Assembly: GCA_965216785.1 (NCBI GenBank)
Contig: OZ244197.1
Coordinates: forward strand, 506,041 to 570,040
DNA: 64,000 bases
Reading direction: 5' to 3'
Source of the DNA: Thermodesulfobacteriota bacterium
Lineage (GTDB): Bacteria; Desulfobacterota_D; UBA1144; Nemesobacterales; UBA2774
The notes under the pieces were generated by a model. That model was not told where the DNA came from. It saw only the letters and a list, made by a program, of their open reading frames with translations, and searched no databases. Below, one piece after another: positions 3,637 to 60,994 of this stretch. The position numbers and the translations under genes were made by a program. The first letter of the stretch is position 1; every line of letters begins with the position of its first letter.

Positions 3637-4989
3637 ATGGATTCAATATTTTCACTGCTTAATACTATCCCGAGCCCGTTCTCGGATTTCGTAGCCGTAA
3701 TAGCGATTTTCATCGTAATCGCCGTAATTTCATTTGTAATATCCTTCTTTTTTGAGCAAAAGCCCGTAGAAGAGCCGGAGGAGGCTGAAATAGCCGAGCT
3801 GCCTGAAGAAGCTGCCGAAGCGGCACCGGCTGAGCCCGCCCCAGAGACCGGGGAAGGTCTTGAAGAAAAGGTTTTAGAGACAATTGAGGAAGCTCTGCCC
3901 TCTGAACCCGGGCCGGAAGCGGCTATTCCCCCCGAGCCTGTGTCAGCACAGGAGATAATAGATGAAGTACCGCACGCGCCTGAAGCGGAGATTGTCGAAG
4001 CGCCGCCGGAAGAAATAGAAGAAGAGATAGAGGAATTTGAAGAAGAGGACGTGAGCCCGGAGGGGCTGTTCGCGAGACTCCGCTCGGGTCTATCTAAAAC
4101 TCACACAGGCATCTTCGGAAGACTCGGCGGGATGTTATCAAAAAAAGAGATTGATACGGATACCTGGGACGACTTTGAAGAAACTCTCATCATGTCAGAC
4201 CTCGGTGTCCCAACCACTATGAAGCTTCGTGAGAGACTGGAGTCAAAACTCGCGAAGAAGTCCCTTGAAGACGAGGAAACAATAGAGCAGGCTCTTAAAG
4301 AGGAAATACTGGAAATACTAAAAGGCGCTCAGGGGGCGCCTATAAAAGCAGACCGCGAGCCGTTCGTTATTATGGTCGCGGGAGTAAACGGCGTCGGAAA
4401 GACTACTACAATTGGTAAATTGGCTCACAAGCTTAAGCAGGAGAGCAATAACGTCATGGTAGCCGCGGGCGACACATTCAGAGCAGCCGCCATGGAACAG
4501 CTGGAAGTCTGGTCAAAGAGAGTGGGCACCGAGTTTCTTGGGGGCGAGAGCGGCAGAGACCCGTCTTCTGTAGCATTTGACGCCGTAAAAGCGGCCATTT
4601 CAAAAAAAATAGGCATACTAATCATAGACACAGCAGGAAGACTGCATACGAAAGAAAACTTGATGGAAGAGCTTAAGAAAATGAAAAGAGTGGTAGGACG
4701 TGAGCTCGAAGGAGCCCCGCACGAGACTCTTTTAGTGCTGGACGCGACTACGGGCCAGAACGCTATTCAGCAAGCTAAGTTGTTTAACGAGGCGCTCGAT
4801 ATCACGGGTATTGTCCTTACTAAGCTCGACGGCACGGCCAAAGGCGGAGTGATAATCGCGATCGCAGACGAGCTGAATATTCCCGTTAAGTATATCGGCA
4901 TAGGCGAGAGTCTTAGCGATCTAAGAGAATTTAATGCCGAGGAATTTGTAGAGGCGCTCTTTTACTCGGGAAACGAAGCTGTGCATTAA
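3637..4989 (+). CDS. ftsY: Signal recognition particle receptor FtsY, with N-terminal TM helix and long acidic A-domain
   Basis: SRP-GTPase motifs GVNGVGKTTTIGKLA, DTAGRLH and TKLDGTAKGG. N-terminal hydrophobic segment, then an E/P/A-rich acidic region (about 3757-4057). RBS GAGAGGAGGA upstream. Confidence 0.93.
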   Translation: MDSIFSLLNTIPSPFSDFVAVIAIFIVIAVISFVISFFFEQKPVEEPEEAEIAELPEEAAEAAPAEPAPETGEGLEEKVLETIEEALPSEPGPEAAIPPEPVSAQEIIDEVPHAPEAEIVEAPPEEIEEEIEEFEEEDVSPEGLFARLRSGLSKTHTGIFGRLGGMLSKKEIDTDTWDDFEETLIMSDLGVPTTMKLRERLESKLAKKSLEDEETIEQALKEEILEILKGAQGAPIKADREPFVIMVAGVNGVGKTTTIGKLAHKLKQESNNVMVAAGDTFRAAAMEQLEVWSKRVGTEFLGGESGRDPSSVAFDAVKAAISKKIGILIIDTAGRLHTKENLMEELKKMKRVVGRELEGAPHETLLVLDATTGQNAIQQAKLFNEALDITGIVLTKLDGTAKGGVIIAIADELNIPVKYIGIGESLSDLREFNAEEFVEALFYSGNEAVH

Positions 4990-5037
4990 CGCCATTATAT
5001 CGCTCACATACTCTTTGAATTGAAGTTATACAGTTGA

Positions 5038-6150
5038 ATGCCTATAGATAAAGATAAAAAATATATGTCAGCTGCCCTTAAGCTTGCTCTTAAAGCACAA
5101 GGGATGACTAGTCCAAATCCACTTGTAGGGGCCGTACTCGTAAAAAACGGTAAGGTCATCGGTAAGGGGTATCACAAAAGAGCCGGGCTCCCGCACGCTG
5201 AGATAGAAGCATTTGAAGACGCTAGAAAAAAGAGAAACAAGATAGCCGGCTCCACTCTGTATGTTACTCTCGAGCCCTGCTGCCACACCGGAAAAAGAAC
5301 TCCCCCCTGCGTAGGCTCCATCATACAGGAGAAGGTATCAAAAGTAGTAGTCTCATCCCTTGATCCGAACCCCAAAGTGAGCGGTAAGGGCGTATCAAAA
5401 CTCAGGAAAAACGGTATCGAGGTTCTAACGGGTGTACTCGACGAAAAATCCCGGGAGATGAACGAAGCATATATAAAGTACATTACAACCGGGCTGCCGT
5501 TTGTTGTACTTAAGCTTGCGGCTACGCTCGACGGGAAGATCGCCGCGGTCTCGGGAGATTCCAAGTGGATAGGGAGCGAGACACAGAGGAAGTACGCTCA
5601 TATCCTCAGGAGCCGGGCAGACGCCGTAATGGCTGGTATAGAAACCGTGCTGACAGATAACCCAAGCCTGAACGTGAGGCTCACAGGCACTCACAAAGAC
5701 CCTGTGCCTGTCATTCTCGACACAAAGCTCAGGACGCCTCTGTCCTCAAACCTGCTGCGCCTTCACGATGAGCCCGTTATCGTTACAACGCGCCCCGTGG
5801 ATAAGGCTAAGCGTGAGAAGCTCAAGAGTCTGGGCGCAAACGTAATCACTGTGAAAAAGGACAAAAACGGCCGGATTGATATGAGGGAGCTGCTGCGCTG
5901 CCTGGGAGAGCTTCAGTTTACAAGCCTTTTAATCGAGGGAGGAAGCTCGGTCGCGGGACAAGCGCTCAAGAGCGGTATTGTGGATAAAATCACCTTTTTT
6001 TATGCGCCTAAAATTCTTGGCTCGAGCGGGCTCAGCATGATAGGCGATCTTAATATACACAGAGTAATGGATTCTATCGAAGTCCAGGATTTAAGTGTGA
6101 AGAAAATCGGAAGCGAGTTTATGGTAGAAGGGTATTTAGGGAATAAGTAA
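5038..6150 (+). CDS. ribD: Bifunctional riboflavin biosynthesis deaminase/reductase RibD
   Basis: CMP/dCMP-type deaminase zinc motif HAEIEA...LYVTLEPCCHTGKTPPC, followed by a RibD C-terminal reductase domain. Confidence 0.9.
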   Translation: MPIDKDKKYMSAALKLALKAQGMTSPNPLVGAVLVKNGKVIGKGYHKRAGLPHAEIEAFEDARKKRNKIAGSTLYVTLEPCCHTGKRTPPCVGSIIQEKVSKVVVSSLDPNPKVSGKGVSKLRKNGIEVLTGVLDEKSREMNEAYIKYITTGLPFVVLKLAATLDGKIAAVSGDSKWIGSETQRKYAHILRSRADAVMAGIETVLTDNPSLNVRLTGTHKDPVPVILDTKLRTPLSSNLLRLHDEPVIVTTRPVDKAKREKLKSLGANVITVKKDKNGRIDMRELLRCLGELQFTSLLIEGGSSVAGQALKSGIVDKITFFYAPKILGSSGLSMIGDLNIHRVMDSIEVQDLSVKKIGSEFMVEGYLGNK

Positions 6151-6176
6151 CGACCATACAAGACACTTAGTAGACA

Positions 6177-6857
6177 ATGACGAGCCCGGATAATAAAAAG
6201 AAAGTCGGAATTTTCGGAGGCACCTTCGACCCGGTACACCTGGGGCATCTGCGGGCCGCCGAAGAGATTAAGCGCATACTGGGGCTTGAGAAGATTTACT
6301 TTATACCCTCAGCCATTCCCCCGCACAAGAAACATACGGAGACTACCCCTTCAAAAGATAGATTAAATATGCTGGAGGCTGCGCTTGAGCCCTACCCGTA
6401 TTTTGAAATTTCTACATATGAAATAGAAAAAGCTACAACTTCATATACCATAGAGACACTGCAGCATTTTACTTCAAATTACCCGGACATAGAGTTCTAT
6501 TTTATTGTAGGCAGTGAGCTCTTTAATCACATTGAAACATGGAAAAACTATAATGATCTCTTTACGTTAGCGAGCTTTGCAGTGATTGAAAGACCTGGAT
6601 TCCCTGATGAGGGCAAACCATCTCTTCCTATTGCAATTGAGCCCGGTTTTCGATATCATATGAACCGGGACAACGTGACAATATATTCAAACAAATATTC
6701 CAAAGAAGTTGTATTTACACAAATCCACGGCGTCAGGGTTTCTTCCACAGAAATTAGACAAAGAATTAAAGCCGGAGAATCAATAAGTGATTTGGTTCCG
6801 GAAGAAGTCGAGCGCTACATACTAAAGAACCACCTTTACACAGAGGCGTACACTTGA
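6177..6857 (+). CDS. nadD: Nicotinate-nucleotide adenylyltransferase
   Basis: N-terminal GIFGGTFDPVHLGHL nucleotidyltransferase (HxGH) motif. Size 226 aa. Confidence 0.9.
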   Translation: MTSPDNKKKVGIFGGTFDPVHLGHLRAAEEIKRILGLEKIYFIPSAIPPHKKHTETTPSKDRLNMLEAALEPYPYFEISTYEIEKATTSYTIETLQHFTSNYPDIEFYFIVGSELFNHIETWKNYNDLFTLASFAVIERPGFPDEGKPSLPIAIEPGFRYHMNRDNVTIYSNKYSKEVVFTQIHGVRVSSTEIRQRIKAGESISDLVPEEVERYILKNHLYTEAYT

Positions 6858-7258
6858 TAGAAGCTAAAGACAAAGCTCTGTCCATCGCTCGTGCCGCGTG
6901 GGAAAAACACGCGCAGGATCCCGTACTTATTGAGGTAAAATCCTCAAGTGATGTCACCGATTACTTTTTAGTCTGCAGCGCTAACTCGGACAGGGGTGTA
7001 AAAACCATAGTCGAGAGCATAGAGCAAAAGCTAAAAGAGCTTGGTGAGAAGGTGATAGGGATCGAGGGTTATTCTGAAGGTAAGTGGGTACTCATTGATT
7101 CAGCAGACGTAGTTGCCCACATCTTTTATGAACCGTTGAGGGGATTTTACGACATAGAGAGCCTATGGATAGATGCCCCACGCGTCGAACTGCGCTTTGA
7201 AGAGCACACATCAAACGGCCATACCTCCCAAGACCCTACAGAGAGATACGGTTCCTAA
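6854..7258 (+). CDS. rsfS: Ribosomal silencing factor RsfS (Iojap family)
   Basis: DVTDYFLVCSANSDRGVKTIVESI...WVLIDSADVVAHIF is typical of RsfS. TTG start overlaps the nadD stop. nadD-rsfS adjacency is conserved. Confidence 0.8.
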   Translation: MIEAKDKALSIARAAWEKHAQDPVLIEVKSSSDVTDYFLVCSANSDRGVKTIVESIEQKLKELGEKVIGIEGYSEGKWVLIDSADVVAHIFYEPLRGFYDIESLWIDAPRVELRFEEHTSNGHTSQDPTERYGS

Positions 7259-7328
7259 AAAGCTCAAACCTCATAAACTCAGCTTATAAATGTGTTCTTA
7301 GGCCTGTGATTGTTGTCAGCGCCAAGCG

Positions 7329-8411
7329 TTATTGGCCCTCTTTAATACCTCTTCTTCTTATAAAAGCAGGTATCTCAAACTCGTCTTCCGCAACCTCGGT
7401 CGGCACTGATGAAACTATCGTATTCATATTCTGAGCACCTACGGTCTGAATGCCTGTCGCTATCACCGTAAGCTGAACCGACTCTCTGAACTGCTCATTG
7501 AAAACAAGGCCGAATATAAGATTGACGTCTGAATGAGCACGGTCTTTTATATAGTTACAAGCCTGGTTTAACTCTTCGATGCCGAAGTCAGGTGATGCCG
7601 TAACATTGAGAAGTATTCCGGTCGCGCCGTCAATGGAAATATCTTCGAGGAGCGGACTCGTAATAGCAGACTCAGCCGCTTCCACGGCACGGTTCGTGCC
7701 CTCGGCAAAACCGGTGCCCATGAGCGCCTTACCGCCGTTTTCCCCCATTATACTCTTCACATCGGCAAAATCGACGTTTATATATCCGGTTCCCGTAATA
7801 ATATCTGAAATACCGCGCACTGCCTGGAGAAGCACCTCATCCGCCTTCTTAAAAGCATCGAGTATGCTTACCTTATGCACTTCAGCAAGCCTGTCGTTGG
7901 GAATGACAATCAGGGTATCGACTTCTTCTTCAAGCCTCTGAATCCCCTCCAGAGCCTGTTTATTTCTCCTGGGCCCTTCAAATCCAAAAGGTTTGGTCAC
8001 CACTCCAACCGTTAGCGCGCCCGTTTCCTTGGCAGCTTGAGCTATTATTGGGGAAGATCCAGTTCCGGTCCCACCTCCCATACCGGCTGTGACGAAAACC
8101 ATATCGGCGCCTTCGAGCGTCTCTGCTATGAGTGACTGATCCTCAATGGCAGCCTCTCTGCCCAGTACCGGGTTACCACCCGAACCAAGGCCTTTTGTAG
8201 TTCTTGTGCCAATTTGGAGCTTTGTAGGGGCTAGCGATTTTCTCAGGTCCTGAGAGTCGGTATTGGTAACTACAAAATCGACTCCTTCAAGTCCCTTTTC
8301 AATCATCGCATTAACGGCATTGCCGCCAGCGCCTCCGGCTCCGACAACTTTGATTTTAGCCTTTTGCTCAATACCAGTGTCTTCGAGTTCAAAGTTTGCC
8401 ATAATCAACAC
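7329..8411 (-). CDS. ftsZ: Cell division GTPase FtsZ
   Basis: Tubulin signature [21 protein letters not shown]-terminus. Last gene of the dcw cluster. Confidence 0.97.
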
Positions 8412-8441
8412 CCTCCTCCATTATATTTTATCCAGTTTAAC

Positions 8442-9674
8442 CTAAAAAAACTCCTGAAACCAGTTTTTCATGCTATCAAATATTTTTTTAAAGACATTCT
8501 CGTCTCTAATCCTTAACTTTTTATCCCCTTTATACTGCGTACCATACAGAACGAGCCCAACTCCGGTTGAATATACCGGGTTTGCAATAATGTCGCTGAG
8601 CCCCCCTACTTCAGTCGGAATACCCATTCTGACAGGCATCTCCAACACCCTTTCGGCAAGCTCAACCGTACCGTTCATTATTACGCTTCCCCCGGTTATT
8701 ACCACTCCGCCCGGGACAAGCTCGTCGTAACCAGATTTTTTTATTTCCCTTTTTGCCAGTGCGAATATTTCGTCCATTCTCGGCTCTATCACCATAGCCA
8801 GGTCTTTTCTTGAAATCTTTCTAAAATGCCGTCCACCCACACTCGGAACTTCAATCGTTTCTTCCGGAGATACGAGCTCAGCGAGCGCGCACCCGTGCTT
8901 TTCCTTAATCTTTCTGGCCTCAGCCAGGGGGGTCGACAGTCCAAGCGCAATGTCTCTGTCTATGTTGTCCCCGCCGAGAGTAACGTTTTCCGTATACCTT
9001 ATGCTGCCGCCAACGAAAATCGCTATGTCGGTAGTGCCGCCGCCGCAGTCAATTAACACGACTCCGATCTCTTTCTCGTCCTCTGTCAGGACAGCCTCGC
9101 TTGAGGCAAGCTGCTCGAGCACCACGTCTGCCACGTCCATTCCCGCGCCGTGTATGCATTTAACCAGATTCTGCGCCGCGGTAACCTGTCCTGTTACAAT
9201 GTGCACCTTTGTCTCCAGCTTAACCCCATATATACCTATTGGATCCTTAATACCCGACTGACCGTCCACAATATATTCCTGAGGAATTACGTGGATGATC
9301 TCTCTGTCAGCCGGTATCAGCACAGCGTTTGCGGACTCTATTACTCTCTCAAGATCCTTATTAGCCACTTCGCGCTCTCGAAGACTAATCATCCCATGGC
9401 CGCTTATCCCCTTTATATGCCCTCCGGCAATACCGACAAAAACCGTCCTTATTTCACACCCGGCCATATGCTCGGCTTCTTCCACCGCGTTTTTAACCGA
9501 CTGTATTGTGTTGTCGATATTTACTACCACTCCCCTCTTAAGACCGAATGAAGGGTATGTGCCTACGCCTACTATCTCCACTTCCTCAGTTTGCGGGTTT
9601 GTCTCGCCAACAATGGCGCATATTTTCGTTGTGCCTATATCCAAGCCGATTATTAAATCCTGCTCTCTACCCAT
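8442..9674 (-). CDS. ftsA: Cell division protein FtsA
   Basis: Actin-like ATPase, IIGLDIGTTKICAIVGE N-terminus. Position between ftsQ and ftsZ. Confidence 0.95.
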   Translation of the reverse strand: MGREQDLIIGLDIGTTKICAIVGETNPQTEEVEIVGVGTYPSFGLKRGVVVNIDNTIQSVKNAVEEAEHMAGCEIRTVFVGIAGGHIKGISGHGMISLREREVANKDLERVIESANAVLIPADREIIHVIPQEYIVDGQSGIKDPIGIYGVKLETKVHIVTGQVTAAQNLVKCIHGAGMDVADVVLEQLASSEAVLTEDEKEIGVVLIDCGGGTTDIAIFVGGSIRYTENVTLGGDNIDRDIALGLSTPLAEARKIKEKHGCALAELVSPEETIEVPSVGGRHFRKISRKDLAMVIEPRMDEIFALAKREIKKSGYDELVPGGVVITGGSVIMNGTVELAERVLEMPVRMGIPTEVGGLSDIIANPVYSTGVGLVLYGTQYKGDKKLRIRDENVFKKIFDSMKNWFQEFF

Positions 9675-10422
9675 CTTGAGCTCCTGAATCTACTGTCGGC
9701 ACCTCAAAATTTACTACTCCCATATCGCTCGAGCTGATGTTTATATAGGCCTGCTTAAGACCTAAATTGTCTGCGTGCTGAATAATACTTTCAAGCTTGC
9801 GCCATTTTCTGTACACGTCGCCCCTGTCGAACACGATATGTCTTCGGTCCGTTGTATATAGATTTATTCCGTAAATATTATCTATATGGATCTCTGATAT
9901 CTCGCTCCAATCGAGAACACTGCTATTTGATGATAAATCCAATATCTGTAAGGCTTCTTTCAATAGATCCGAGTTTTCTATACCATCGCCGATCAGAACA
10001 GGAAAATCAAGGCCTTCATCAAATTTAGCCGTACCGAGTATTTTGCCGGTACTGCTTAAATAGTGCGGACTGCCGTCTGAGCCAAAGACAAGGCAGTAAA
10101 CCTTTTCCTCTTCAATATCAATATGTACCCTCTTGGGAAATTCTTTATGGACCTTGACGCTGTGGATCCAGGGATTTTTCAAGATATCTTTTTCTACCCT
10201 GTCCTCAAAGAAAAAAATGCTGCTCTCACCGAGCCTTAAGCCCGATCTTTGCAGTATTTCTTTCTCTGAAATCTTCTCGTTACCGGCGACTGTTACTTCA
10301 TGCACGGTAAATACCCCGAGGCTGATTGTAATGTACGTGCACACACCAAACACCGCTATTACCAGCAGTACCGTAAGCACCTTGGCCGCCTTTACGAATA
10401 ACGCTTTTCTCTCTTCGCTCAC
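9667..10422 (-). CDS. ftsQ: Cell division protein FtsQ (POTRA domain, single TM)
   Basis: N-terminal TM helix then POTRA-like region (TVHEVTVAGNEKISEKEIL). Overlaps ftsA start by 8 nt. Confidence 0.85.
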   Translation of the reverse strand: MSEERKALFVKAAKVLTVLLVIAVFGVCTYITISLGVFTVHEVTVAGNEKISEKEILQRSGLRLGESSIFFFEDRVEKDILKNPWIHSVKVHKEFPKRVHIDIEEEKVYCLVFGSDGSPHYLSSTGKILGTAKFDEGLDFPVLIGDGIENSDLLKEALQILDLSSNSSVLDWSEISEIHIDNIYGINLYTTDRRHIVFDRGDVYRKWRKLESIIQHADNLGLKQAYINISSSDMGVVNFEVPTVDSGAQDG

Positions 10423-11315
10423 TTTTTATCCCCTACCACCCTTACCTCTGTCTCGAGCTTTATACCCCTTTTTGACAAGGCCTCTTTCTTGGCCGTTTCT
10501 ATGAGACTAAGAACATCCTGCGCGCTCGCGCCCCCGCAGTTAACTATAAAGTTCGCGTGCAGGTCAGAGAACTTAGCCCCGCCGATCCCGTAACCCTTCA
10601 GCCCTAGCTCCTCAAGCAGCCTGCCGGCCGCGATCTCGGGAGGGTTCTTAAATATTGAGCCGGTATTCGTCATAGTAATCGGCTGAGTTTCGTTTCGCTT
10701 CTCCATGTATTGTTTTACGTTTTGCTCGCTCTCCACCTTGTTTCCTTTCTTAAGCGCGAACATGGCTTTTAGTACGACGCTCCCCTTCGGGAGGTGTGCT
10801 TTTCTGTACTCAAATTTTACATCCTTTCTCTTAAACTCAACTTCCTTCCCGTCATGCCAAACCCAAACTGTATCTACGACGTCCTTGATCTCCCCATCGT
10901 TTGCCCCTGCGTTCATGAATACGCCTCCGCCGACCGTACCCGGTATGCCCGCGGCAAACTCAAACCCCGTGAGGCCCGCCCTAACAGTTTTATTTAGTAT
11001 TGTCCCGAGTATAGCGCCGGTTTCCGCAACCACTTTGCAGTTATCGAGGATCTCGATCTTCTTAAGCTTTTTAGTGGACAGTACAGCCCCTGTTATTCCC
11101 CTGTCATAAACTATCGTATTAGAGCCTTCTCCGAGTACAATCCACTTTGTTCCAGAAGAGTGGAGTATGTCGAGCGCCTCTTTAAGCTGGGCGGCGTTAG
11201 CCGGCGTTACCAATAGATCGGCTTGTCCCCCAACACGGAGCCAGGTGTACTTATCCATAGGATATTTACTCTTAACCTCACACCCGATTTTCTCAAGCTT
11301 TGATGCGAGCGTCAC
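10419..11315 (-). CDS. murB: UDP-N-acetylenolpyruvoylglucosamine reductase
   Basis: FAD-binding MurB fold (LRVGGQADLLV..., GSNTIV). 4-nt overlaps with neighbours. Confidence 0.92.
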   Translation of the reverse strand: MTLASKLEKIGCEVKSKYPMDKYTWLRVGGQADLLVTPANAAQLKEALDILHSSGTKWIVLGEGSNTIVYDRGITGAVLSTKKLKKIEILDNCKVVAETGAILGTILNKTVRAGLTGFEFAAGIPGTVGGGVFMNAGANDGEIKDVVDTVWVWHDGKEVEFKRKDVKFEYRKAHLPKGSVVLKAMFALKKGNKVESEQNVKQYMEKRNETQPITMTNTGSIFKNPPEIAAGRLLEELGLKGYGIGGAKFSDLHANFIVNCGGASAQDVLSLIETAKKEALSKRGIKLETEVRVVGDKK

Positions 11316-12679
11316 TTAATCGCCTCCACTATCTCTTCCCCGTAGGTCCAGACGTTCCCGGCGCCGAGCGTCAGCACAGTGTCCCCCGATTCTATTGCTT
11401 CAAGAACAGCCCTCGCAACACTTTGGCTTCCGTTAATATAGGTAACATCCTCATGACCCGACTCTTTAATTGCCTCAAAGAGCCTCTGAGAGCTCACCCC
11501 CTCGATCGGGTCTTCACTCGCAGCGTAAATATCCAGTAAAAATAGCTTGTCCGCCTGCAGAAGAACCTGAACGAATTCATCGAACAGCAGACTTGTACGG
11601 GAATACCTGTGGGGCTGAAACATCACGACAACCCTCCCCGCACCGGTCTCCTTTATCGCCTCTATGGTAACTTCTATTTCCCGTGGGTGATGAGCATAGT
11701 CGTCTACTACCGTTATCCCGCCCGAGCTCCCCTTAATCTCCAGCCTTCTGCCTATCCCTTTAAATTTCGACAGTCCCTCTTTCACATGCTCAAAACTCAT
11801 TCCAAGCTCCATACCTACGGCAATTGCAGCAAGCGCATTCTGAGCAACATGTCTGCCGGGGGAGTGGATTTTAATATTCCCCAATACAGTATCTTCCTGC
11901 ACTACAGTAAACTCGGTCTCAAAGCCGTGAATTTTTACGTCTTGAGCTCTGAGCTCGGCATCCGGGCTAAACCCGTACGTAACTAACCTTTTCTGATAGT
12001 CCTTGGCGATGGAGCTTACCCTCGGGCAGTCCACACATAATACGGACAGGCCGTAGAACGGTATTTTATTCATAAAGGAAGTGAACGTCCCAACCAATTC
12101 CTCCATATCTTTGTAATGATCCATGTGCTCTTCATCTATGTTGGTAAGTACGGAAATTACCGGAGATAAAAGCATAAAAGACCCGTCGCTCTCATCGGCC
12201 TCGACTACCATAAAGCTGCCTTCTCCGAGCCTGGCATTCGTGCCTAGGGTCTGAACCTTGCCTCCGACAACTATAGTCGGGTCGAGCCCCCCGTAGGAGA
12301 GCACAGATTCTATCATCGATGTAGTCGTGGTTTTTCCATGGCTCCCGGCAACTGCGATACCGTATCGGAGCCTCATGAGCTCGGCCAGCATCTGCGCCCT
12401 CGGGATTACTGGGATGCCCAGAGAATGAGCCTCCGCCACCTCGGGGTTGTCCTGTCTCACTGCCGAGGAAATCACAACTACATCAGTGTCACGCACGTTT
12501 TCCGCCTCGTGTCCTATATGGATGCGGGCACCGAGCCCAATGAGCCGCTTTACCGTTTCAGACTCCTTCAGATCAGACCCCGTAACCGTATAGCCCATAT
12601 TGATCAGTACTTCCGCGATGCCGCTCATGCCGATACCGCCAATCCCAACAAAATGTAGACGTTTTATCTTTCCGTACAC
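11312..12679 (-). CDS. murC: UDP-N-acetylmuramate--L-alanine ligase
   Basis: Mur ligase motifs HFVGIGGIGMSGIA and GSHGKTTTTSM. Confidence 0.95.
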   Translation of the reverse strand: MYGKIKRLHFVGIGGIGMSGIAEVLINMGYTVTGSDLKESETVKRLIGLGARIHIGHEAENVRDTDVVVISSAVRQDNPEVAEAHSLGIPVIPRAQMLAELMRLRYGIAVAGSHGKTTTTSMIESVLSYGGLDPTIVVGGKVQTLGTNARLGEGSFMVVEADESDGSFMLLSPVISVLTNIDEEHMDHYKDMEELVGTFTSFMNKIPFYGLSVLCVDCPRVSSIAKDYQKRLVTYGFSPDAELRAQDVKIHGFETEFTVVQEDTVLGNIKIHSPGRHVAQNALAAIAVGMELGMSFEHVKEGLSKFKGIGRRLEIKGSSGGITVVDDYAHHPREIEVTIEAIKETGAGRVVVMFQPHRYSRTSLLFDEFVQVLLQADKLFLLDIYAASEDPIEGVSSQRLFEAIKESGHEDVTYINGSQSVARAVLEAIESGDTVLTLGAGNVWTYGEEIVEAIK

Positions 12680-13749
12680 CAGTTCACTCCGCTAAGTTTA
12701 TATATTTCGTCAACAATGTGAGGCGCGGCTCCGGGTTTTCCAAGCGCGCGCGATCTCACTGCCATTTCTTCCAGTTTGTTTTTATCCTTTAAAACTTGAA
12801 GCGCTTGAGCCAGATTTTCCGGCGTCGCCTCTTTATCTTCTATCAGTAACGCCGCCCCCGAAGCTTCTAGAGCCTTTGCATTCTCGAGCTGATGGTTATG
12901 CGTCGCATACGGAAACGGTATTAACAGCGAGGGCTTTCCAAGCGCCGTAATCTCTGCAACGGTTCCTGCGCCGGCTCTTCCTATCACAAAATCACTCCTC
13001 GCATACGCTGTGGCCATATCGTCTATAAACGTAAGAACCTCAGCGCTGATATTGTTCTTATTGTAGAAATCCTGAACATCCTTAAGATCATTTTCGCCTG
13101 TTTGATGAATCACATGGAGACCACTGATTCCGCTCCGGGATAGCGCTTCGGGAACCGAGCTGTTAAGCCTCTTCGCTCCCTGGCTTCCTCCGAACACAAG
13201 ACATACAAACGAGCGCCCCTGCTCCTTTTCGCCTTTGTAAGTCAAAATGTCTTTTCTGACAGGATTTCCTGTAACAACTATTTTATCTTTATCGAAAAAT
13301 TTTTCACACCCTTCAAACGTGCTGAATATCTTTTTTGCAAATTTACTCAAGATGCGGTTAGTAACCCCGGGCACGGAATTCTGCTCGCAAACGGCAGTCG
13401 GCAGCCTCAATATCGAGGCTGACAGCACTACAGGACCTGACACATATCCACCTACGCCGAGTACTACATCTGGTTTGAAGCTCCGAATAACCGAAACTGA
13501 CTCGACAATGCCGACAGCTGCTGAAAAAACTCCGGAAACCCTTTTAAATATTCCTTTTCCCACAATACCACCCGAACTAATATGTTTTATCTCATAACCC
13601 CTCTGAGCGACCAATTTATTTTCCAATCCGCTCCTTGTTCCCACAAATAAAACCTCATTCCCAGGGTCCCTATTTAATATCTCCTCGGCAATAGAGATTG
13701 CCGGGAACACGTGGCCCCCGGTGCCTCCGCCTGCAATTATGACCTTCAT
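12664..13749 (-). CDS. murG: Undecaprenyldiphospho-muramoylpentapeptide beta-N-acetylglucosaminyltransferase
   Basis: GT28 family, MKVIIAGGGTGGHVFPAISIAEE N-terminus. Confidence 0.95.
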   Translation of the reverse strand: MKVIIAGGGTGGHVFPAISIAEEILNRDPGNEVLFVGTRSGLENKLVAQRGYEIKHISSGGIVGKGIFKRVSGVFSAAVGIVESVSVIRSFKPDVVLGVGGYVSGPVVLSASILRLPTAVCEQNSVPGVTNRILSKFAKKIFSTFEGCEKFFDKDKIVVTGNPVRKDILTYKGEKEQGRSFVCLVFGGSQGAKRLNSSVPEALSRSGISGLHVIHQTGENDLKDVQDFYNKNNISAEVLTFIDDMATAYARSDFVIGRAGAGTVAEITALGKPSLLIPFPYATHNHQLENAKALEASGAALLIEDKEATPENLAQALQVLKDKNKLEEMAVRSRALGKPGAAPHIVDEIYKLSGVNWCTER

Positions 13750-55652: not shown

Positions 55653-55692
55653 GATGAAAAGGCGGCAATTCGAACAAAATTGCCGCCTTTTT
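55653..55692. terminator. Bidirectional rho-independent terminator between convergent glnA and nuoL
   Basis: AAAAGGCGGCAATTcgaacaaAATTGCCGCCTTTTTTATT: a 10-bp GC-rich stem flanked by an A-run and a T-run. Confidence 0.8.
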
Positions 55693-55804: not shown

Positions 55805-57778
55805 CTAAAACTGCCATAGTAAAATAAATATTAAGATTATAGCGGCTCCAATGGCCATGAGAGAAGCGTAGCTTCTTAATGCCCCCGATTGAGCTGCCTG
55901 AAGAGTAAGAGCCGTTTCCCTGACTATGGAAGCAACCCCGTTTACGGCGCCGTCAATAAACTTCTGGTCGAACCTCGAGGCCTGCTCTGCTATATAGGTA
56001 AAGGGCTTTACGATTATATAGTCGTATAGCTCATCCACATACCATTTATTGAGAGAGCCCTCATAAAGAGGCTTGACCACTTCATTCTCGGCGATTTTAT
56101 CAGCCGAAGAAGGCTTAATGAGATATAGGTACAGGGCGATTAGTATTCCAAGCAAAGCAGCAACGATAGAGAAGATAACCAGGGTCCAGTGGCTGAAAAG
56201 GTGATGACCTATGTGTCTGGTGCCGTCCAGCAAGATCGAGGTGGATATGAATTTCTCAAATAAATTCGAATCGTGTACCCCTACTACCTCGCCCATAAAC
56301 TCAGGCACGCCGATGTAGCCCCCGAAAATGGAAAGCACAGCCAGAACTATGAGTGGTATCGTCATGGTCGCCGGGGATTCGTGTATATGCTTTTTAACAG
56401 CTTCTGTGATCCTGGACTCGCCCTCAAAGGTGAGAACGTAGAGCCTGATCATATAAAGCGCCGTTAGTACAACCGTGATCAAGGCCACGATCCAGTGGAT
56501 CATATACCCCCCGTCATACAGGGAAGCGAGTATCTCGTCCTTACTGAAGAAACCCGACAGGAAAGGAACGCCCGCAATAGCCAGAGTACCGATGAGAAAT
56601 GTAATGGCCGTTATGGGAATAAACTTTCTAAGCCCGCCCATATGCCTTATATCCTGCTCACCGCTCATCGCGTGAATGACGCTTCCTGAGCCTAAGAACA
56701 ATAGCGCTTTAAAGAACGCGTGAGTTACCAGGTGGAATAGGCCCGCCGTGTATGCGCCGACGCCGATTGCCATAAACATATATCCGAGCTGGCTGACAGT
56801 AGAATATGCAAGGACTTTCTTAATATCGTTTTGGGTAATCGCAATACTGGCGGCAAGGATAGCGGTAAAAGCCGCGATAGATACGACTATCATCTGTGCA
56901 GTTGGGGACTGGGAATAGAACACATTGCAGCGAGACATCATGTACGCGCCCGCAGTGACCATGGTAGCCGCATGTATGAGCGCGCTAACAGGGGTCGGGC
57001 CGGCCATAGCGTCCGGGAGCCAAACGTAGAGCGGGAATTGAGCTGACTTACCAACGGCCCCTACAAAGAGTAGTAGCGCGACCGCGGTTATTGCAAGTCC
57101 TGACACTCCGGTCATAAACGAAGGGTCTAGGGCTTTTGCGAATACGTCCTGATAATTAACGGACCCAAAAAGGAAGAAAATGAGGAATATGCCTAAGATA
57201 AAGCCGAAATCGCCGATCCTGTTTACTATGAATGCCTTTCTACCGGCATAGGCTTTCTCGGTATCGCTGAACCAAAAACCGATGAGCAGATAAGAGGCGA
57301 GCCCCACACCTTCCCAGCCAACGAACATGAGAAGGAAGTTGTTTCCTAATACGAGAGTCAGCATGAAGAAGATGAAGATGTTCAGATACGTAAAATATTT
57401 GGCGTAGGCCTTGTCGTCGTGCATGTAGCCGATCGAGTAGACATGAATGAGAAACCCTATCCAGGTGATGATTAGCGCCATGACGCATGAGAGCGTATCG
57501 AAGAGGACCTCAAAGCTGACCGTAAATGCGCCCGAAGGTATCCAGACAAATAGAGTCTCTATGATCTGCCTATCCGAAGGCTCCATAGACAATAACCTTG
57601 TGAATAATACCGTTGATAATATTGCGGATATTAGTACTGTTAGCGAGGCGATGACGCCTGAGACGCTGTGCTCTGTGTGCTCGTCTCCCCCGAGCACTTT
57701 CCTGTAGAAGCCCGATGCGAAGAAAAGGCCGTTAAAAATGGCTCCGATGAGCGGAATTAAAATTATCCAGGCAATCAT
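55805..57778 (-). CDS. nuoL: NADH-quinone oxidoreductase subunit L
   Basis: 657-aa antiporter-like subunit with the long C-terminal amphipathic arm, IAWIILIPLIGAIFNGLF N-terminus. Confidence 0.9.
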   Translation of the reverse strand: MIAWIILIPLIGAIFNGLFFASGFYRKVLGGDEHTEHSVSGVIASLTVLISAILSTVLFTRLLSMEPSDRQIIETLFVWIPSGAFTVSFEVLFDTLSCVMALIITWIGFLIHVYSIGYMHDDKAYAKYFTYLNIFIFFMLTLVLGNNFLLMFVGWEGVGLASYLLIGFWFSDTEKAYAGRKAFIVNRIGDFGFILGIFLIFFLFGSVNYQDVFAKALDPSFMTGVSGLAITAVALLLFVGAVGKSAQFPLYVWLPDAMAGPTPVSALIHAATMVTAGAYMMSRCNVFYSQSPTAQMIVVSIAAFTAILAASIAITQNDIKKVLAYSTVSQLGYMFMAIGVGAYTAGLFHLVTHAFFKALLFLGSGSVIHAMSGEQDIRHMGGLRKFIPITAITFLIGTLAIAGVPFLSGFFSKDEILASLYDGGYMIHWIVALITVVLTALYMIRLYVLTFEGESRITEAVKKHIHESPATMTIPLIVLAVLSIFGGYIGVPEFMGEVVGVHDSNLFEKFISTSILLDGTRHIGHHLFSHWTLVIFSIVAALLGILIALYLYLIKPSSADKIAENEVVKPLYEGSLNKWYVDELYDYIIVKPFTYIAEQASRFDQKFIDGAVNGVASIVRETALTLQAAQSGALRSYASLMAIGAAIILIFILLWQF

Positions 57779-57780
57779 AT

Positions 57781-58086
57781 CTATCCTTTAAGAAGCTTTA
57801 ATAAGTCTATATTGAGTGACTCTCTGTGCTTGTATATCGCAACCACAAGGGCGAGCCCTACGGCGACCTCGGCAGCCGCTACAGTGAGCGACATTATCAT
57901 AAATACATGTCCTGTCATATCGTCAAGCGCCCGGGAGAACCCTACAAACGCGAGGTTTGCAGCGTTTAGCATGAGCTCAAGACACATGAGTACGATAAGA
58001 ATGTTTTTCCTCGTAATGACGCCGAACGCGCCTATGAGAAAGAGAATCGCGCTAAGCACGAGATAATGCTCTATGGATATAGCCAA
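57781..58086 (-). CDS. nuoK: NADH-quinone oxidoreductase subunit K
   Basis: 101 aa, LVLSAILFLIGAFGVITRKNILIVLMCLELMLNAANLAFV matches NuoK/ND4L. Confidence 0.92.
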   Translation of the reverse strand: MAISIEHYLVLSAILFLIGAFGVITRKNILIVLMCLELMLNAANLAFVGFSRALDDMTGHVFMIMSLTVAAAEVAVGLALVVAIYKHRESLNIDLLKLLKG

Positions 58087-58087
58087 C

Positions 58088-58588
58088 TCAGCCGTCCCTC
58101 CTCTTTGCTATCGCTACAACACCAATGATGGCGGCCACTATGAGAACAGAGGTTAGCTCGAATGGCAGAAGGTATTCTGTGAACAGCATAGTGCCTACGC
58201 CCTTAGCTGAGCCGAAGTCCACGGACTCGGTGTAGCTCCTCTTAATCCCCCTGCTGAACCCAAGGCTTGCGAAATAGCCTACAAACAGCAGCAAAACCAT
58301 GAAAATGCTTATCTTGAATTTCATGTACTTAGAGTCGAATTTGAACGCTTCGGGCCGGATGTTGAGGAACATGACCGTGAATAGAAATAGGATCATGATC
58401 GCGCCCGCGTAAACTAGCACCTGAACGACAGCCACAAAATCGGCGTGCAGGAGGACAAAAAGTACAGCCGTTGAAAAAAGAGTGAGTACAAGGGAAATGG
58501 CGCTGTAAACAGGGTTACTGTGAGTTACAACAACAATTGCGCCTGCTACAGCGAGGGCCGCGAATAGGTAAAAAACGACTGTTTCCAA
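58088..58588 (-). CDS. nuoJ: NADH-quinone oxidoreductase subunit J
   Basis: HSNPVYSAISLVLTLF...VLVYAGAIMILFLFTVMFLN matches NuoJ/ND6. TTG start with GGAGGA RBS. Confidence 0.9.
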   Translation of the reverse strand: METVVFYLFAALAVAGAIVVVTHSNPVYSAISLVLTLFSTAVLFVLLHADFVAVVQVLVYAGAIMILFLFTVMFLNIRPEAFKFDSKYMKFKISIFMVLLLFVGYFASLGFSRGIKRSYTESVDFGSAKGVGTMLFTEYLLPFELTSVLIVAAIIGVVAIAKRRDG

Positions 58589-58733
58589 GTCTTAAAAATC
58601 CTCCAAAGTATTTAGGGGAAATTATTTCAGTTTACGGGGTAAGAATTATATTTGGAATGGGGGGATAGTCAACAGGATATCCGACTTCGCTCAAGCAATG
58701 TCGAGACAGGCAAAAAAACAAATCCCTTTTAAT

Positions 58734-58792
58734 CCCCCTTTTTCTAAGGGGGAATAAGAAAAGACAAAAGCAAAAGATGAGATTCTGAAACA
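58734..58792. repeat. Intergenic repeat element copy A: 7-bp hairpin + conserved ~30-nt motif, followed by two further hairpins (58805-58823, 58857-58876)
   Basis: CCCCCTTtttctAAGGGGG...caaaagcaaaagatgagattctgaaacaa, then TCCCGGAtcaagTCCGGGA and TTCCGGGtcgaagCCCGGAA. Confidence 0.6.
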
Positions 58793-58882
58793 ATACTGAA
58801 TAGATCCCGGATCAAGTCCGGGACATGGTTCAGAATGATAGCTTGAAGGATGAGATTCCGGGTCGAAGCCCGGAATGACTAT

Positions 58883-59539
58883 TTAACGACTTATATCTAC
58901 CCCTACTCTGTCGCAGTGCTCTGTGATCGGGCAGGTGGAGCAGATGGGGGAGATGGGCCGGCACTGGTGCTGGCCGAAGGCTACTAGGAGGCTGTTGTAG
59001 TCTATCCAATGCTCGCGGGGGAGTTTCTTTCTAAGCGTCATCTCTGTATCGAGCGGGTCTTTCGTTCGAATATAACCAAGCCTATTGGAAATTCTGTGGA
59101 CGTGGGTATCCACGCATATTCCGTCCTTGTTATACCCAAGCGTGAGTACCAGATTTGCAGTTTTTCTGCCTACACCCTTGAATTTAAGAAGCTCGTCCAG
59201 GTCGTCGGGGACAATAGAGTCATATTTCTCTACCAGCTCACGGCATATTCCAAGAATGTTCTCAGCTTTGGTCTTATAGAACCCAACCGGGTATATGGCG
59301 TCCGCGATGGTTTCTTTACTTAGCCTGAGCATATCGCCCGGGTTATCGGCAAGCTTAAATAAGCGCCTGGATGCTTCAGCCGTGGTCTCGTCCTTTGTCC
59401 TGAGGCTGAGGACTGTGGAGATGAGCACCTTAAATGGGTCTCGGGAGGTTTCTGCCTCGAGCGTGACTGCCGGGACGGTCCATTTGGAGTATTCTGCTTT
59501 TAATTTTTTTACTACGGTGTGGATGTCGGATGCTTTCAT
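58883..59539 (-). CDS. nth: Endonuclease III (DNA-(apurinic or apyrimidinic site) lyase)
   Basis: HhH-GPD motif KFKGVGRKTANLVL and [4Fe-4S] motif C-X6-C-X2-C-X5-C (CRPISPICSTCPITEHC). The track ORF (to 59638) would run through repeat copy B; the start at 59539 (MKASDI) is preferred. Confidence 0.88.
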   Translation of the reverse strand: MKASDIHTVVKKLKAEYSKWTVPAVTLEAETSRDPFKVLISTVLSLRTKDETTAEASRRLFKLADNPGDMLRLSKETIADAIYPVGFYKTKAENILGICRELVEKYDSIVPDDLDELLKFKGVGRKTANLVLTLGYNKDGICVDTHVHRISNRLGYIRTKDPLDTEMTLRKKLPREHWIDYNSLLVAFGQHQCRPISPICSTCPITEHCDRVGVDISR

Positions 59540-59604
59540 TTGTTCTGAGGGGAAGGATAGCATAAACAGCGGAATAAGTATTAATGATAAATAATCCTCC
59601 CTAG

Positions 59605-59666
59605 CCCTCCTTTGAGAAAGGAGGGTATAAAAAGGCAAAGATGGAGATCCTGAAACAAGTTCAGGA
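59605..59666. repeat. Intergenic repeat element copy B: 9-bp hairpin + conserved ~30-nt motif + 7-bp hairpin
   Basis: CCCTCCTTTgagAAAGGAGGG...aaaaaggcaaagatggagatcctgaaacaa, and TCCTGAAacaagTTCAGGA. Homologous to copy A: hairpin, then (a)aaa.gcaaagatg.gat.ctgaaacaa. Confidence 0.6.
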
Positions 59667-59707
59667 TGACATCATTGAGTTTGGGGGGATTTAGAGTTTA
59701 AATACCG

Positions 59708-59737
59708 GCAGCTTCATAAGGAGCAGCGCGAAGCTGC
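59708..59737 (-). terminator. Hairpin immediately downstream of the sigma-factor gene (possible terminator/attenuator)
   Basis: GCAGCTTCataaggagcagcgcGAAGCTGC, an 8-bp stem 16 nt after the stop codon. No strong U-tract follows, so it may be an RNA-stability element instead. Confidence 0.35.
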
Positions 59738-59752
59738 CGGGGGATAATCGAT

Positions 59753-60994
59753 TTAGTTGTATACGTCCATGAGGCTTCTGAGCACGGGAGCCGACTTTGA
59801 GCGCCTCATACGCTCAAGAGCTTTCTTTTCGATCTGCCTGATTCTCTCTCTGGTGAGCTGGAATTTCTTGCCGATCTCATCGAGCGTAAAAGCTGTTTCA
59901 TACCCTATGCCAAAGCGCATCTTCACGACTTCCCTCTCTCTAATGTTAAGCTTAAGGAGAGCGGTGTTGATGTTGTCGGGGATGGAGATCTCGGCTATCA
60001 GGCTGTCAACGCCTGTGGAGCCAGAGTCCTCGACGAAATCGAGATATGTCGCGTTCTCACCAGCCCAGACAGGGGTGTCGAGACGAACTACACGGTTACC
60101 GCCTGATTCGAGTATTCTCCTAACGTTCTCAACACTCATTTTTGCCTTAGCGGCAATTTCTTCGGCAAATGGCTCTCTTTCGTTCTCTTTGGTGAGCACC
60201 CTTTTTACGTGGCGCACCTTGCCTGCTTTTTCCAGAAGGTAGGCGGGCATCTTAACAGTTCTGGTCTGATTGAATATGCCCCTGGTCATAGCCTGGTTGA
60301 TCCACCAACAGGCATATGTGGAAAACCTGTAGCCCTTTTCGTGGTCGAACCTTTCTACAGCTTTTATGAGGCCGAGGTTACCTTCCTGGATGAGGTCGAG
60401 GAAAGGAACGCCGCGTCCGACGTAGCGCTTTGCCATACTGGCGACAAGCCTGAGGTTTGATTTTACAAACCTGTTCCTGAGCTGGACGCCTTTGTTTGTA
60501 AATGCTCTGTACCTGCCAAGAAGAAGAGCGAGAAGTCTCTTATCGCCGGCAGTCAACTTGGAGCTATTCGGGGAAAGGCTCCACACCTCGGTATCTAGAT
60601 ATTTATATGTTTCGACCTGGTAGTTAGCCCAGTCGGCGTCAAATTTCATGCCGGTTAATTTTTCAATGTTCTTTTTGCAGTCTTTGGCACCGGATTCACA
60701 AGCCTTGATCTTAGCCGCAATCTGAGCTTCCTCATTCGGCGTTAGAAGCGGTTCAAGACTTACTTCCTGAAAGTATGCGTTTACAAGTCTGAGGTCACGG
60801 TTTACCTCTTCTGTTTTTTTACCTTTAGTCTTAGCAACGACTTGCGCGGGCTCCGGCTCGGAATGGAGCTCCTCGTCCAGAACCTTTTGCGGCTCCTCAA
60901 TTTCTTCGTGGTCAAATTCGTGAACAACACTCTCAAGCTGAACAGTAGCTATTTCTTCGTCGTATGTATGGCCGTATTCGATTTTTTTAGACAT
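59753..60994 (-). CDS. rpoD: RNA polymerase sigma-70 family factor (group 1/2, RpoD-like, 413 aa)
   Basis: Region 2 DLIQEGNLGLIKAVERFDHEKGYRFSTYACWWINQAMTR, region 3, and region 4 HTH TLDEIGKKFQLTRERIRQIEKKALERMR. Acidic N-terminus, no long region 1.1. Confidence 0.85.
   Translation of the reverse strand: MSKKIEYGHTYDEEIATVQLESVVHEFDHEEIEEPQKVLDEELHSEPEPAQVVAKTKGKKTEEVNRDLRLVNAYFQEVSLEPLLTPNEEAQIAAKIKACESGAKDCKKNIEKLTGMKFDADWANYQVETYKYLDTEVWSLSPNSSKLTAGDKRLLALLLGRYRAFTNKGVQLRNRFVKSNLRLVASMAKRYVGRGVPFLDLIQEGNLGLIKAVERFDHEKGYRFSTYACWWINQAMTRGIFNQTRTVKMPAYLLEKAGKVRHVKRVLTKENEREPFAEEIAAKAKMSVENVRRILESGGNRVVRLDTPVWAGENATYLDFVEDSGSTGVDSLIAEISIPDNINTALLKLNIREREVVKMRFGIGYETAFTLDEIGKKFQLTRERIRQIEKKALERMRRSKSAPVLRSLMDVYN

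Follow-up and report, generated by a model that had tools for sequence, protein, structure and literature searches.

The analyzed stretch, hereafter the window, comprises 64,000 nucleotides of contig OZ244197.1 from a Thermodesulfobacteriota bacterium, in which every gene of the part from nuoL to a sigma-70 gene is encoded on the minus strand and nth lies between the sigma factor gene and nuoJ (Table 1). A first-pass annotation had described related structured modules on either side of nth and named REP/MITE-like repeats (repetitive extragenic palindromes and miniature inverted-repeat transposable elements, respectively), small RNAs and coordinating binding sites as candidates; all of the sequences quoted there are present at the positions given. 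Both spacers beside nth were found to hold one composite, which consists of a REP hairpin, a T-rich spacer, a second hairpin (designated H1) and a short tag. It is likely that both modules represent one composite palindromic repeat, the main unit of which is a REP of the type represented by the CGTC-tagged REPs and the NTS of Neisseria, and that they are selfish or semi-domesticated DNA and not a dedicated regulator of nth.

When read on the minus strand, in the sense of the genes, the composite begins with an unpaired NGTC head, a stem of 8 bp whose first two pairs are A-T and then T-A, a loop of 4-5 nt and a CTC(ATC) tail, continues with a T-rich spacer of approximately 15-25 nt (ATCTTTTGCTTTTGTCTTTT), and ends with H1, which is built of a pyrimidine arm and a purine arm and has a GGGnGGATT tag a few bases downstream. 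The GTC heads are on the minus strand, and all four REP units of the window are co-oriented, head-to-tail. The nth-nuoJ copy has been lengthened by an extra REP unit in tandem (unit B together with unit A). Unit B, whose head begins 3 nt past the nth stop codon, has a perfect stem of 8-9 bp and a loop of 4 nt if read on the plus strand, where a G-T pair closes it, or of 6 nt on the minus strand; many genomes, as well as the fetched loci L257, L259 and L262, contain units of this type. The long form, unit A, has a degenerate TATC head, a CTCATC tail and a loop of ~39 nt that encloses a second hairpin; the same long form is present in L147 (ATCATTCTGAACCnTGTCCCGG..CCGGGATC..TTTCAGAATCTC), and the reverse nesting was observed in L264. 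Logan contigs of the same organism end at 58796-58822, within the nested hairpin, an effect expected of multi-copy or polymorphic sequence.

Several parts of the two modules were also recognized elsewhere. The T-rich spacer of module 1 is conserved as ATCTTTTGCTTTTG... in L257, L264, L147, L053 and L048, the core of unit C (GAGATCCTGAAACAAGTTCAGGATGAC) was found in identical form in several viral and genome contigs, and the H1 variant of module 2 also occurs at the orthologous site of L263. The three perfect hairpins reported in the first-pass annotation were confirmed and correspond to unit B, unit C and the hairpin nested in unit A. Its conserved 30-mer was recovered as a motif of ~28 nt (58766-58793 and 59631-59658, 79% identical), but this is not a separate motif, since it is composed of the A-rich spacer, the 5' flank (GATGAGAT) and the left arm of the REP hairpin. 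The two module copies differ by a 1-nt indel, and a pattern of fixed spacing therefore missed copy 1. An orphan tag-like sequence in the sigma-nth spacer, oriented opposite to the modules, is possibly a remnant of an inverted H1 unit.

CGTC-tagged REPs, which include dRS3 of Neisseria and RPE-4/RPE-6 of Rickettsia, were described by Di Nocera, De Gregorio and Rocco (2013, BMC Genomics 14:522; PMC3733652). These repeats carry an unpaired CGTC tag (also TGTC or CCTC) at one end only, stems of 8-9 bp that nearly always start with A-T and T-A, a loop of 4-5 nt and a 3-nt tail, most commonly CCA, and they are located just after open reading frames (ORFs), as many copies dispersed through a genome, in several phyla, without an associated transposase (PMC3733652). 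The same defining features were found in the window: a GTC head at one end (TGTC in unit C, AGTC in unit B, and the degenerate TATC in unit A), the A-T/T-A stem opening in ATTCCGGG/CCCGGAAT, ATCCTGAA/TTCAGGAT and ATTCTGAA/TTCAGAAT, the loop size in units C and B (unit A, with ~39 nt, is the exception), a 3-nt tail that is CTC in all three units, and an intergenic position near the 3' end of the upstream ORF, which also holds for L257 and L262-L264. No transposase gene was found in the window. Further copies of both the units and the composite were found at other loci, in other genomes and on phage-like contigs, and the REP/MITE-like candidate of the first-pass annotation is therefore the one that we retain.

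A degenerate hairpin pattern matched at least 120 stretches of a viral collection, and a stricter pattern that included the GATGAGAT flank (GATG-N0-1-AGATYC...) matched at least 120 stretches of species-representative genomes; the genome matches listed belong to Flavobacteriaceae (many genera), Treponema, Gastranaerophilales, Saccharibacteria, Sphingomonadaceae, Mesoaciditoga, Sulfurovum, Micropruina and others, and the source genome is not among them. Hairpins that had not been used for retrieval, when oriented by their GAC side, yielded the flank consensus (A)TGAG-stem-GAC(G/A). Among 209 unique GTC-headed 8+5+8 hairpins from the fetched loci, the base before GTC was C in 103, T in 82, A in 21 and G in 3; CTC formed the tail of 160, and at least 12 compensating stem variants were present. 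Because the retrieval patterns favoured pairing, a flank-only test was run on 130 GTCAT-N17-ATC instances that these patterns did not match: all six inner positions were paired in 56 of them, compared with 0.4 expected from shuffling, and at least 17 distinct stems were represented among the 56 fully paired hairpins. The REP family is thus distributed in many phyla, with conserved flanks and covarying stems. A search of the cultured phages of INPHARED with the consensus unit returned nothing useful, all-against-all clustering of ORFs revealed no recurrent transposase around the REPs, and literature searches found nothing on palindromic repeats in Dadabacteria, raw sequence strings matching primers only.

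The two copies lie ~870 bp apart in the same orientation, an arrangement that a simple local duplication of one spacer across nth would also produce. However, their REP stems differ (ATTC..GAAT versus ATCC..GGAT), each being internally compensated, their H1 sequences (CCCCCTT versus CCCTCCTTT) and spacer lengths differ as well, and each variant matches other genomes more closely than it matches the other copy, which leaves this explanation scarcely credible. The first-pass annotation had itself considered that the motif might be restricted to the two sites, lack covariation or result from such a duplication; the motif extends beyond the two sites, its stems covary, and the copies are not simple local duplicates.

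The RNAs of the two spacers folded far more stably than shuffled sequences (z = -4.05 and -4.80), and none of 200 shuffles folded as well. A covariance model (R1) was built from 17 composite copies, with the nth-nuoJ copy left out and the sigma-nth copy included in the training alignment. R1 matched the untrained nth-nuoJ copy at 62.6 bits (E = 8e-15, model positions 1-90) and the sigma-nth copy, a member of its training set, at 72.6 bits (E = 1.3e-17). In the rest of the 64 kb no match with E <= 1 was found apart from weak overlapping partial ones in the sigma-nth spacer, and a weak match at 59641-59696 (plus strand, 17.6 bits) reaches the orphan tag; within the 64 kb, REP and H1 features are confined to the two nth spacers. 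The strong predicted structure and the presence of two similar copies bracketing one gene might also suggest a locus-specific RNA, either a conserved cis-regulatory element or a small RNA gene, the latter being among the initial candidates. Nevertheless, none of the covariance models of Rfam 15 matched the window at the gathering score, with just two chance-level matches (E about 9) within 58500-59800, no promoter-like site adjoins the modules, the composite is also present in unrelated loci and phage contigs, and the content of the spacers varies among relatives whose Nth proteins are 89-95% identical and is absent at 79%. Such an RNA is highly improbable. Other candidates were also rejected on sequence grounds: hammerhead or other ribozymes have no Rfam match, the R'/R'' boxes of an integron attC site are lacking, and a small encoded peptide is contradicted by ORFs that are not the same in both copies; a T-arm-like tRNA fragment was discarded as well.

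A comparison with related genomes revealed how quickly these spacers change. An exact-sequence look-up of Nth gave no match, because gene callers had chosen a different start. The Nth homologs put the organism among metagenome-assembled genomes (MAGs) labelled Candidatus Dadabacteria or Thermodesulfobacteriota, in which the gene order sigma-nth-nuoJ is retained and the repeat content of both spacers is not. In L257 (Nth 92% identical), one REP (stem ATCC/GGAT versus ATTC/GAAT in the window) and the same H1 follow nth, and a different REP type with 400 extra bases follows the sigma factor gene; L263 and L264 (89% and 84%) have other arrays, including the long form with reverse nesting; L259 and L262 (91% and 95%) have additional genes inserted at these spacers; and L260 (79%) has no element, with a canonical terminator after the sigma factor gene. 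REP copies are also present at further spacers of L259 (6916, 11076 and 11310). From one close relative to the next, units at the two nth sites have been gained, lost or exchanged, and the differences between close relatives, together with the absence in a distant one, indicate turnover rather than a conserved RNA or operator. The genes inserted in L259 and L262 imply that the repeat-bearing spacers coincide with gene-insertion hot spots; they encode IPTL-CTERM, alginate-export-like and pentapeptide-repeat proteins (L259:1849-3090 and 3747-13528; L262:1393-5443). The nth-flanking modules fit fast-turnover repeat DNA situated between a transcript end and the next promoter.

That the modules are operator-like protein-binding sites co-regulating nuoJKL, nth and the sigma factor gene, as had also been proposed, is favoured by their position on either side of nth and by nothing more. 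The units occur beside unrelated genes in many phyla, and the same composite is found in unrelated contexts, including regions of phage structural genes; the sites are not conserved in relatives with the same gene order, and the conserved nuoJ promoter lies outside the modules. There is very little probability that the modules serve as such operators.

Three phage-like IMG/VR contigs contain dense arrays, with 9-12 units per 13 kb under a strict definition and as many as 29 under a looser one (loci L048, L053/L031/L265, L075 and L112, including IMG/VR 3300010223_000008 and 3300028845_000195). Their units are co-oriented, antisense to the structural genes, and represent at least five stem types. 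Pfam searches detected a terminase in one contig, tail proteins in another, and also Fic, and no nuclease or transposase candidate in these contigs. The composite also occurs on these contigs, and the window-type H1 19-mer is present in two of the three (L048/L075 and L053/L265) and not in L112; the sharing of the H1 19-mer by phage-like contigs and Dadabacteria-like chromosomes suggests a shared host range or repeat exchange. All units share one direction both in the window and in each of the Dadabacteria-like loci, and in the phage-like contigs the orientation is uniform over 13 kb whatever the strand of the ORFs. As the units are co-oriented and yet antisense to phage structural genes, their orientation is not tied to transcription.

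These observations bear on whether the hairpins might function chiefly as RNA where the sigma and nth transcripts end (as terminators, attenuators or 3'-end stabilizers), with their repetition being secondary. Several features agree with such a role, which would be compatible with a REP origin: sense-strand units start 3 nt past the nth stop codon and precede the nuoJ promoter, each REP is succeeded by a T-rich tract, strong folding is predicted for the intergenic RNAs, and REPs near the 3' ends of ORFs are thought to work as RNA (PMC3733652). On the other hand, an intrinsic-terminator scan of 58400-59900 flagged no repeat unit, the T-rich (U-rich) tract beginning ~6 nt past the REP stem while the canonical criterion is a T run within 0-2 nt; the nth-nuoJ spacer of L260 lacks any element; and the antisense units and constant orientation of the phage-like contigs also speak against it. 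A function chiefly in RNA is therefore considered unlikely, and turnover of repeat DNA remains the preferred interpretation.

Features conserved in relatives outside the modules include the nth leader and a near-consensus sigma-70 promoter of nuoJ, which lies downstream of module 1 and is kept in all relatives, the repeat-free L260 included. Its conservation implies that nuoJKL has its own promoter here, apart from nth. A perfect 11-bp hairpin near the sigma-70 stop codon occurs at the same place in L257, L259, L262 and L263 with both arms changed; it has no T run after the stem, stands outside the repeat family, and is probably a 3'-end structure of the sigma transcript. The hairpin downstream of nuoL is flanked by A and T runs; this canonical two-way terminator is kept in L257 and L260, and exemplifies the ordinary terminators of this organism.

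Table 1. Positions of genes, repeat units and landmarks in the window, and of DUF559 elements in other fetched loci
Feature	Position	Strand	Description
nuoL	55805-57778	minus	
nuoK	57781-58086	minus	
nuoJ	58088-58588	minus	
nth-nuoJ spacer			294 nt
nth (endonuclease III)	58883-59539	minus	homologs named endonuclease III, with PF00730; stop codon 58883-58885
sigma-nth spacer			213 nt
sigma-70 gene	59753-60994	minus	
Composite module 1	58716-58842	minus	nth-nuoJ spacer; long-form REP + T-rich spacer + H1 + degenerate tag
REP unit B	58849-58879	minus	aGTC-ATTCCGGG-cttcga-CCCGGAAT-CTC ATC; arms at 58855-58876
REP unit A, long form	58776-58839	minus	outer stem ATTCTGAA/TTCAGAAT, 58782-58789 paired with 58829-58836
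Inner hairpin	58805-58823	minus	TCCCGGA tcaag TCCGGGA, inside the unit A loop
T-rich spacer, module 1	58754-58775	minus	CTTTTGCTTTTGTCTTTTCTTAT
H1 hairpin, module 1	58733-58753	minus	TCCCCCTT agaaa AAGGGGGA; quoted earlier as CCCCCTTtttctAAGGGGG at 58734-58752
Degenerate H1 tag, module 1	58720-58732	minus	TTAAAAGGGATTT; family consensus nnnnRGGGGGATTT
Composite module 2	59588-59673	minus	sigma-nth spacer
REP unit C	59640-59670	minus	tGTC-ATCCTGAA-cttgt-TTCAGGAT-CTC CATC; arms at 59647-59667; 5-nt loop
T-rich spacer, module 2	59626-59639	minus	TTTGCCTTTTTATA
H1 hairpin, module 2	59605-59625	minus	CCCTCCTTT ctc AAAGGAGGG; quoted earlier as CCCTCCTTTgagAAAGGAGGG
H1 tag, module 2	59593-59604	minus	CTAGGGAGGATT
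Orphan tag-like sequence	59681-59692	plus	TTGGGGGGATTT; orientation opposite to modules
nuoJ promoter	58672-58645	minus	TTGACT-16-TATAAT; 11/12 consensus match
Hairpin after sigma-70 gene	59705-59740		11-bp perfect stem CCGGCAGCTTC..GAAGCTGCCGG; 12 nt past the stop codon
Hairpin downstream of nuoL	55656-55692		15-bp stem GAAAAGGCGGCAATT..AATTGCCGCCTTTTT
DUF559 elements	L340:544-1090, L397:1100-1700, L387:1931-2460, L402:1510-2100		perfect 20-bp ends; also L322, L344, L379, L293

The REPs of this lineage are more diverse than the four published CGTC families. Spacers of L262, L263, L264 and L162 (e.g., L263:4190-4255 and L262:1440-1470) contain more GTC-headed types that share the head and the ATC tail and have divergent stems (GTCATTGCGAGCG.AGCGAAGCAATC, GTCATTCTGAGCGGAGCGAAGAATCTC and GTCATTCCCGAACG..CGGGAATCC), as well as a separate CACCCTGAG..AGGGTG hairpin. 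Inverted REP doublets are frequent in loci of Flavobacteriaceae, Treponema and Sphingomonadaceae. In nine Flavobacteriaceae loci (L173, L174, L177, L209, L213, L222, L230, L232 and L233) the doublet reads ..GTTCTCAT, ~20 nt, GATGAGATTCTGAA.., and it lies beside an ABC-transporter gene, apparently at one site in Lutibacter, Flagellimonas and Muricauda, suggesting that it may have been retained across genera.

The second hairpin of the composite has a distribution of its own. The exact H1 19-mer CCCCCTTAGAAAAAGGGGG was found in more than 120 metagenome stretches, almost always followed by nnnnRGGGGGATTT, and in a metagenome sample anchored on H1 a GTC-headed hairpin was present within 120 nt upstream in just 5 of 117 H1 copies. 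These metagenome copies rule out that a REP always precedes H1 and indicate that REP and H1 are fused specifically in this lineage and on its phage-like contigs; H1 is a widespread repeat in its own right. In 0.70 Mb of H1-anchored loci there are six DUF559 (PF04480) genes, five of them directly against the H1 hairpin, compared with one in the other ~2.2 Mb of fetched sequence. DUF559 proteins are Vsr-like PD-(D/E)xK endonucleases. Among the DUF559 homologs listed, ~95 of 120 end in a read-through tail, (E/K)IPPxPP(F/L)xKGG, which is the translation of the H1 hairpin and tag. In several loci the gene is the only one of an element of ~0.65 kb, in which a 20-bp inverted end (GGGCATAAGCGCTAACTTAA), H1 with its tag, the DUF559 gene, the tag with an H1-like hairpin, and the second inverted end follow one another; this element lies inside the loop of a C-arm/G-arm palindrome and was found in at least five flanking contexts. 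The window holds no part of it other than solo H1 units, the 20-bp terminal inverted repeat (TIR) being absent, and no paper linking DUF559 with palindromic repeats was found.

It is possible, albeit with more doubt than confidence on our part, that H1 of the window (CCCCCTTAGAAAAAGGGGG with the GGGGGATTT tag) is the solo subterminal hairpin of a mobile DUF559 element that inserts into the loops of C-arm/G-arm hairpins, that the composites join the target or recognition hairpins of two nuclease families (Ssn GIY-YIG for REP and DUF559 for H1), and that the co-oriented arrays common to Dadabacteria-like chromosomes and phage-like contigs reflect single-strand, replication-linked spread. According to the mechanism that we propose, REP and H1 units would act as single-stranded DNA hairpins recognized on a particular strand by small stand-alone nucleases whose genes lie in other parts of the genome and which may be, by the published CGTC/NTS case, an Ssn-type GIY-YIG single-stranded DNase for REP and, by the association of gene and hairpin observed here, a DUF559 endonuclease for H1. 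The repeats would spread via nicking followed by repair or recombination, and hairpins with which the transcribed nth and sigma mRNAs end may incidentally stabilize these 3' termini. At the level of the locus, these results remove a tempting regulatory story for nth. They also extend the CGTC/NTS-type REP superfamily to Dadabacteria-like bacteria and phage-like contigs, and the dense co-oriented arrays, which are rare in the published survey, bear on how such repeats spread, because no transposase is known for CGTC REPs. If confirmed, the observation that hairpins of the H1 type are both the ends and the insertion targets of DUF559 elements would assign a function to a very large protein family for which none is known and add a second pair of tiny nuclease and genome-wide hairpin repeat after Ssn/NTS.

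Several points weigh against the assignment of the modules to CGTC/NTS-type repeat DNA. The window samples 64 kb of the source genome, and its four REP and two H1 units are all located in two adjacent spacers. The heads are AGTC, TGTC and TATC, not CGTC, and the tail is CTC versus the published CCA. The window units form head-to-tail arrays, which were called negligible for CGTC REPs in a survey that lists five phyla and describes inverted doublets (PMC3733652). With the pattern HGTCWYN(0-2)YYVSBRHN(0-5)WNVSBRGN(0-2)RNCYNB (PMC11893778), the window gave no exact match to the SRM, a motif related to NTS; unit B and the nested unit are two substitutions away and unit C more than three, and the nine one-mismatch matches compare with 9.4 expected from shuffles. 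Neither GIY-YIG nor DUF559 ORFs were found in the window or in ~80 kb of the relatives' loci. Neither transposition nor a target duplication nor cleavage was seen, and the mechanism is one that we infer.

Compared with the published CGTC REPs, the window units thus deviate in the first base of the head in two of three cases, include a long form with a nested hairpin (unit A), are joined via a T-rich spacer to a second hairpin repeat, and reside in a host (Dadabacteria/Thermodesulfobacteriota-like MAGs) outside the five phyla of that survey. GTAG REPs form a separate superfamily from CGTC REPs (PMC3733652), and their REP-associated tyrosine transposases (RAYTs) are IS200/IS605-like Y1 transposases. 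Similar to REP/REPIN-RAYT systems, the window units are short extragenic palindromes with an unpaired tag, of a kind thought to act as single-stranded DNA hairpins; however, their heads are NGTC followed by AT, with no GTAG, they form no inverted doublet, and no RAYT was seen. The bacterial interspersed mosaic elements (BIMEs) of E. coli and the Neisseria intergenic mosaic elements (NIMEs) also resemble the modules in being intergenic arrays of palindromic units that alternate with other short conserved motifs, in the variation of unit number by strain, and in sites that coincide with genes inserted in relatives, whereas BIMEs consist of GTAG REPs in alternating orientation tied to RAYTs, and the window units are CGTC-type, co-oriented and combined with H1. 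As for MITEs, neither a TIR nor a target duplication was discernible around the window modules, and filled and empty sites (L257 versus L260) are too diverged to set the ends of the element.

The window units can also be compared with NTS. Chenal et al. (2025, Nat Commun 16:2388; PMC11893778) reported that the oriented NTS of Neisseria is bound and cut by SsnA, a 94-aa GIY-YIG nuclease that acts on single-stranded DNA only and on one strand only, and that ssn homologs (cd10448 GIY-YIG) of many phyla are flanked by related motifs, the SRM. NTS (CGTCATTCCCGCG..GCGGGAATCYRG) and the window units have in common their head (GTCAT), the base of the stem (ATTCC..GGAAT) and their tail (ATC), whereas the inner stems of the window units are A/T-richer (CTGAA). 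Further likenesses include the strand polarity of the repeat, the clustering of repeats around variable genes, the location of dRS3/NTS clusters of Neisseria at gene-insertion hot spots, and the occurrence of GIY-YIG ORFs in some REP-anchored loci (PF01541 ORFs in five such loci of other organisms). The window units are accordingly filed under the CGTC REP superfamily, and the link to Ssn may serve as a working analogy for how such hairpins are recognized.

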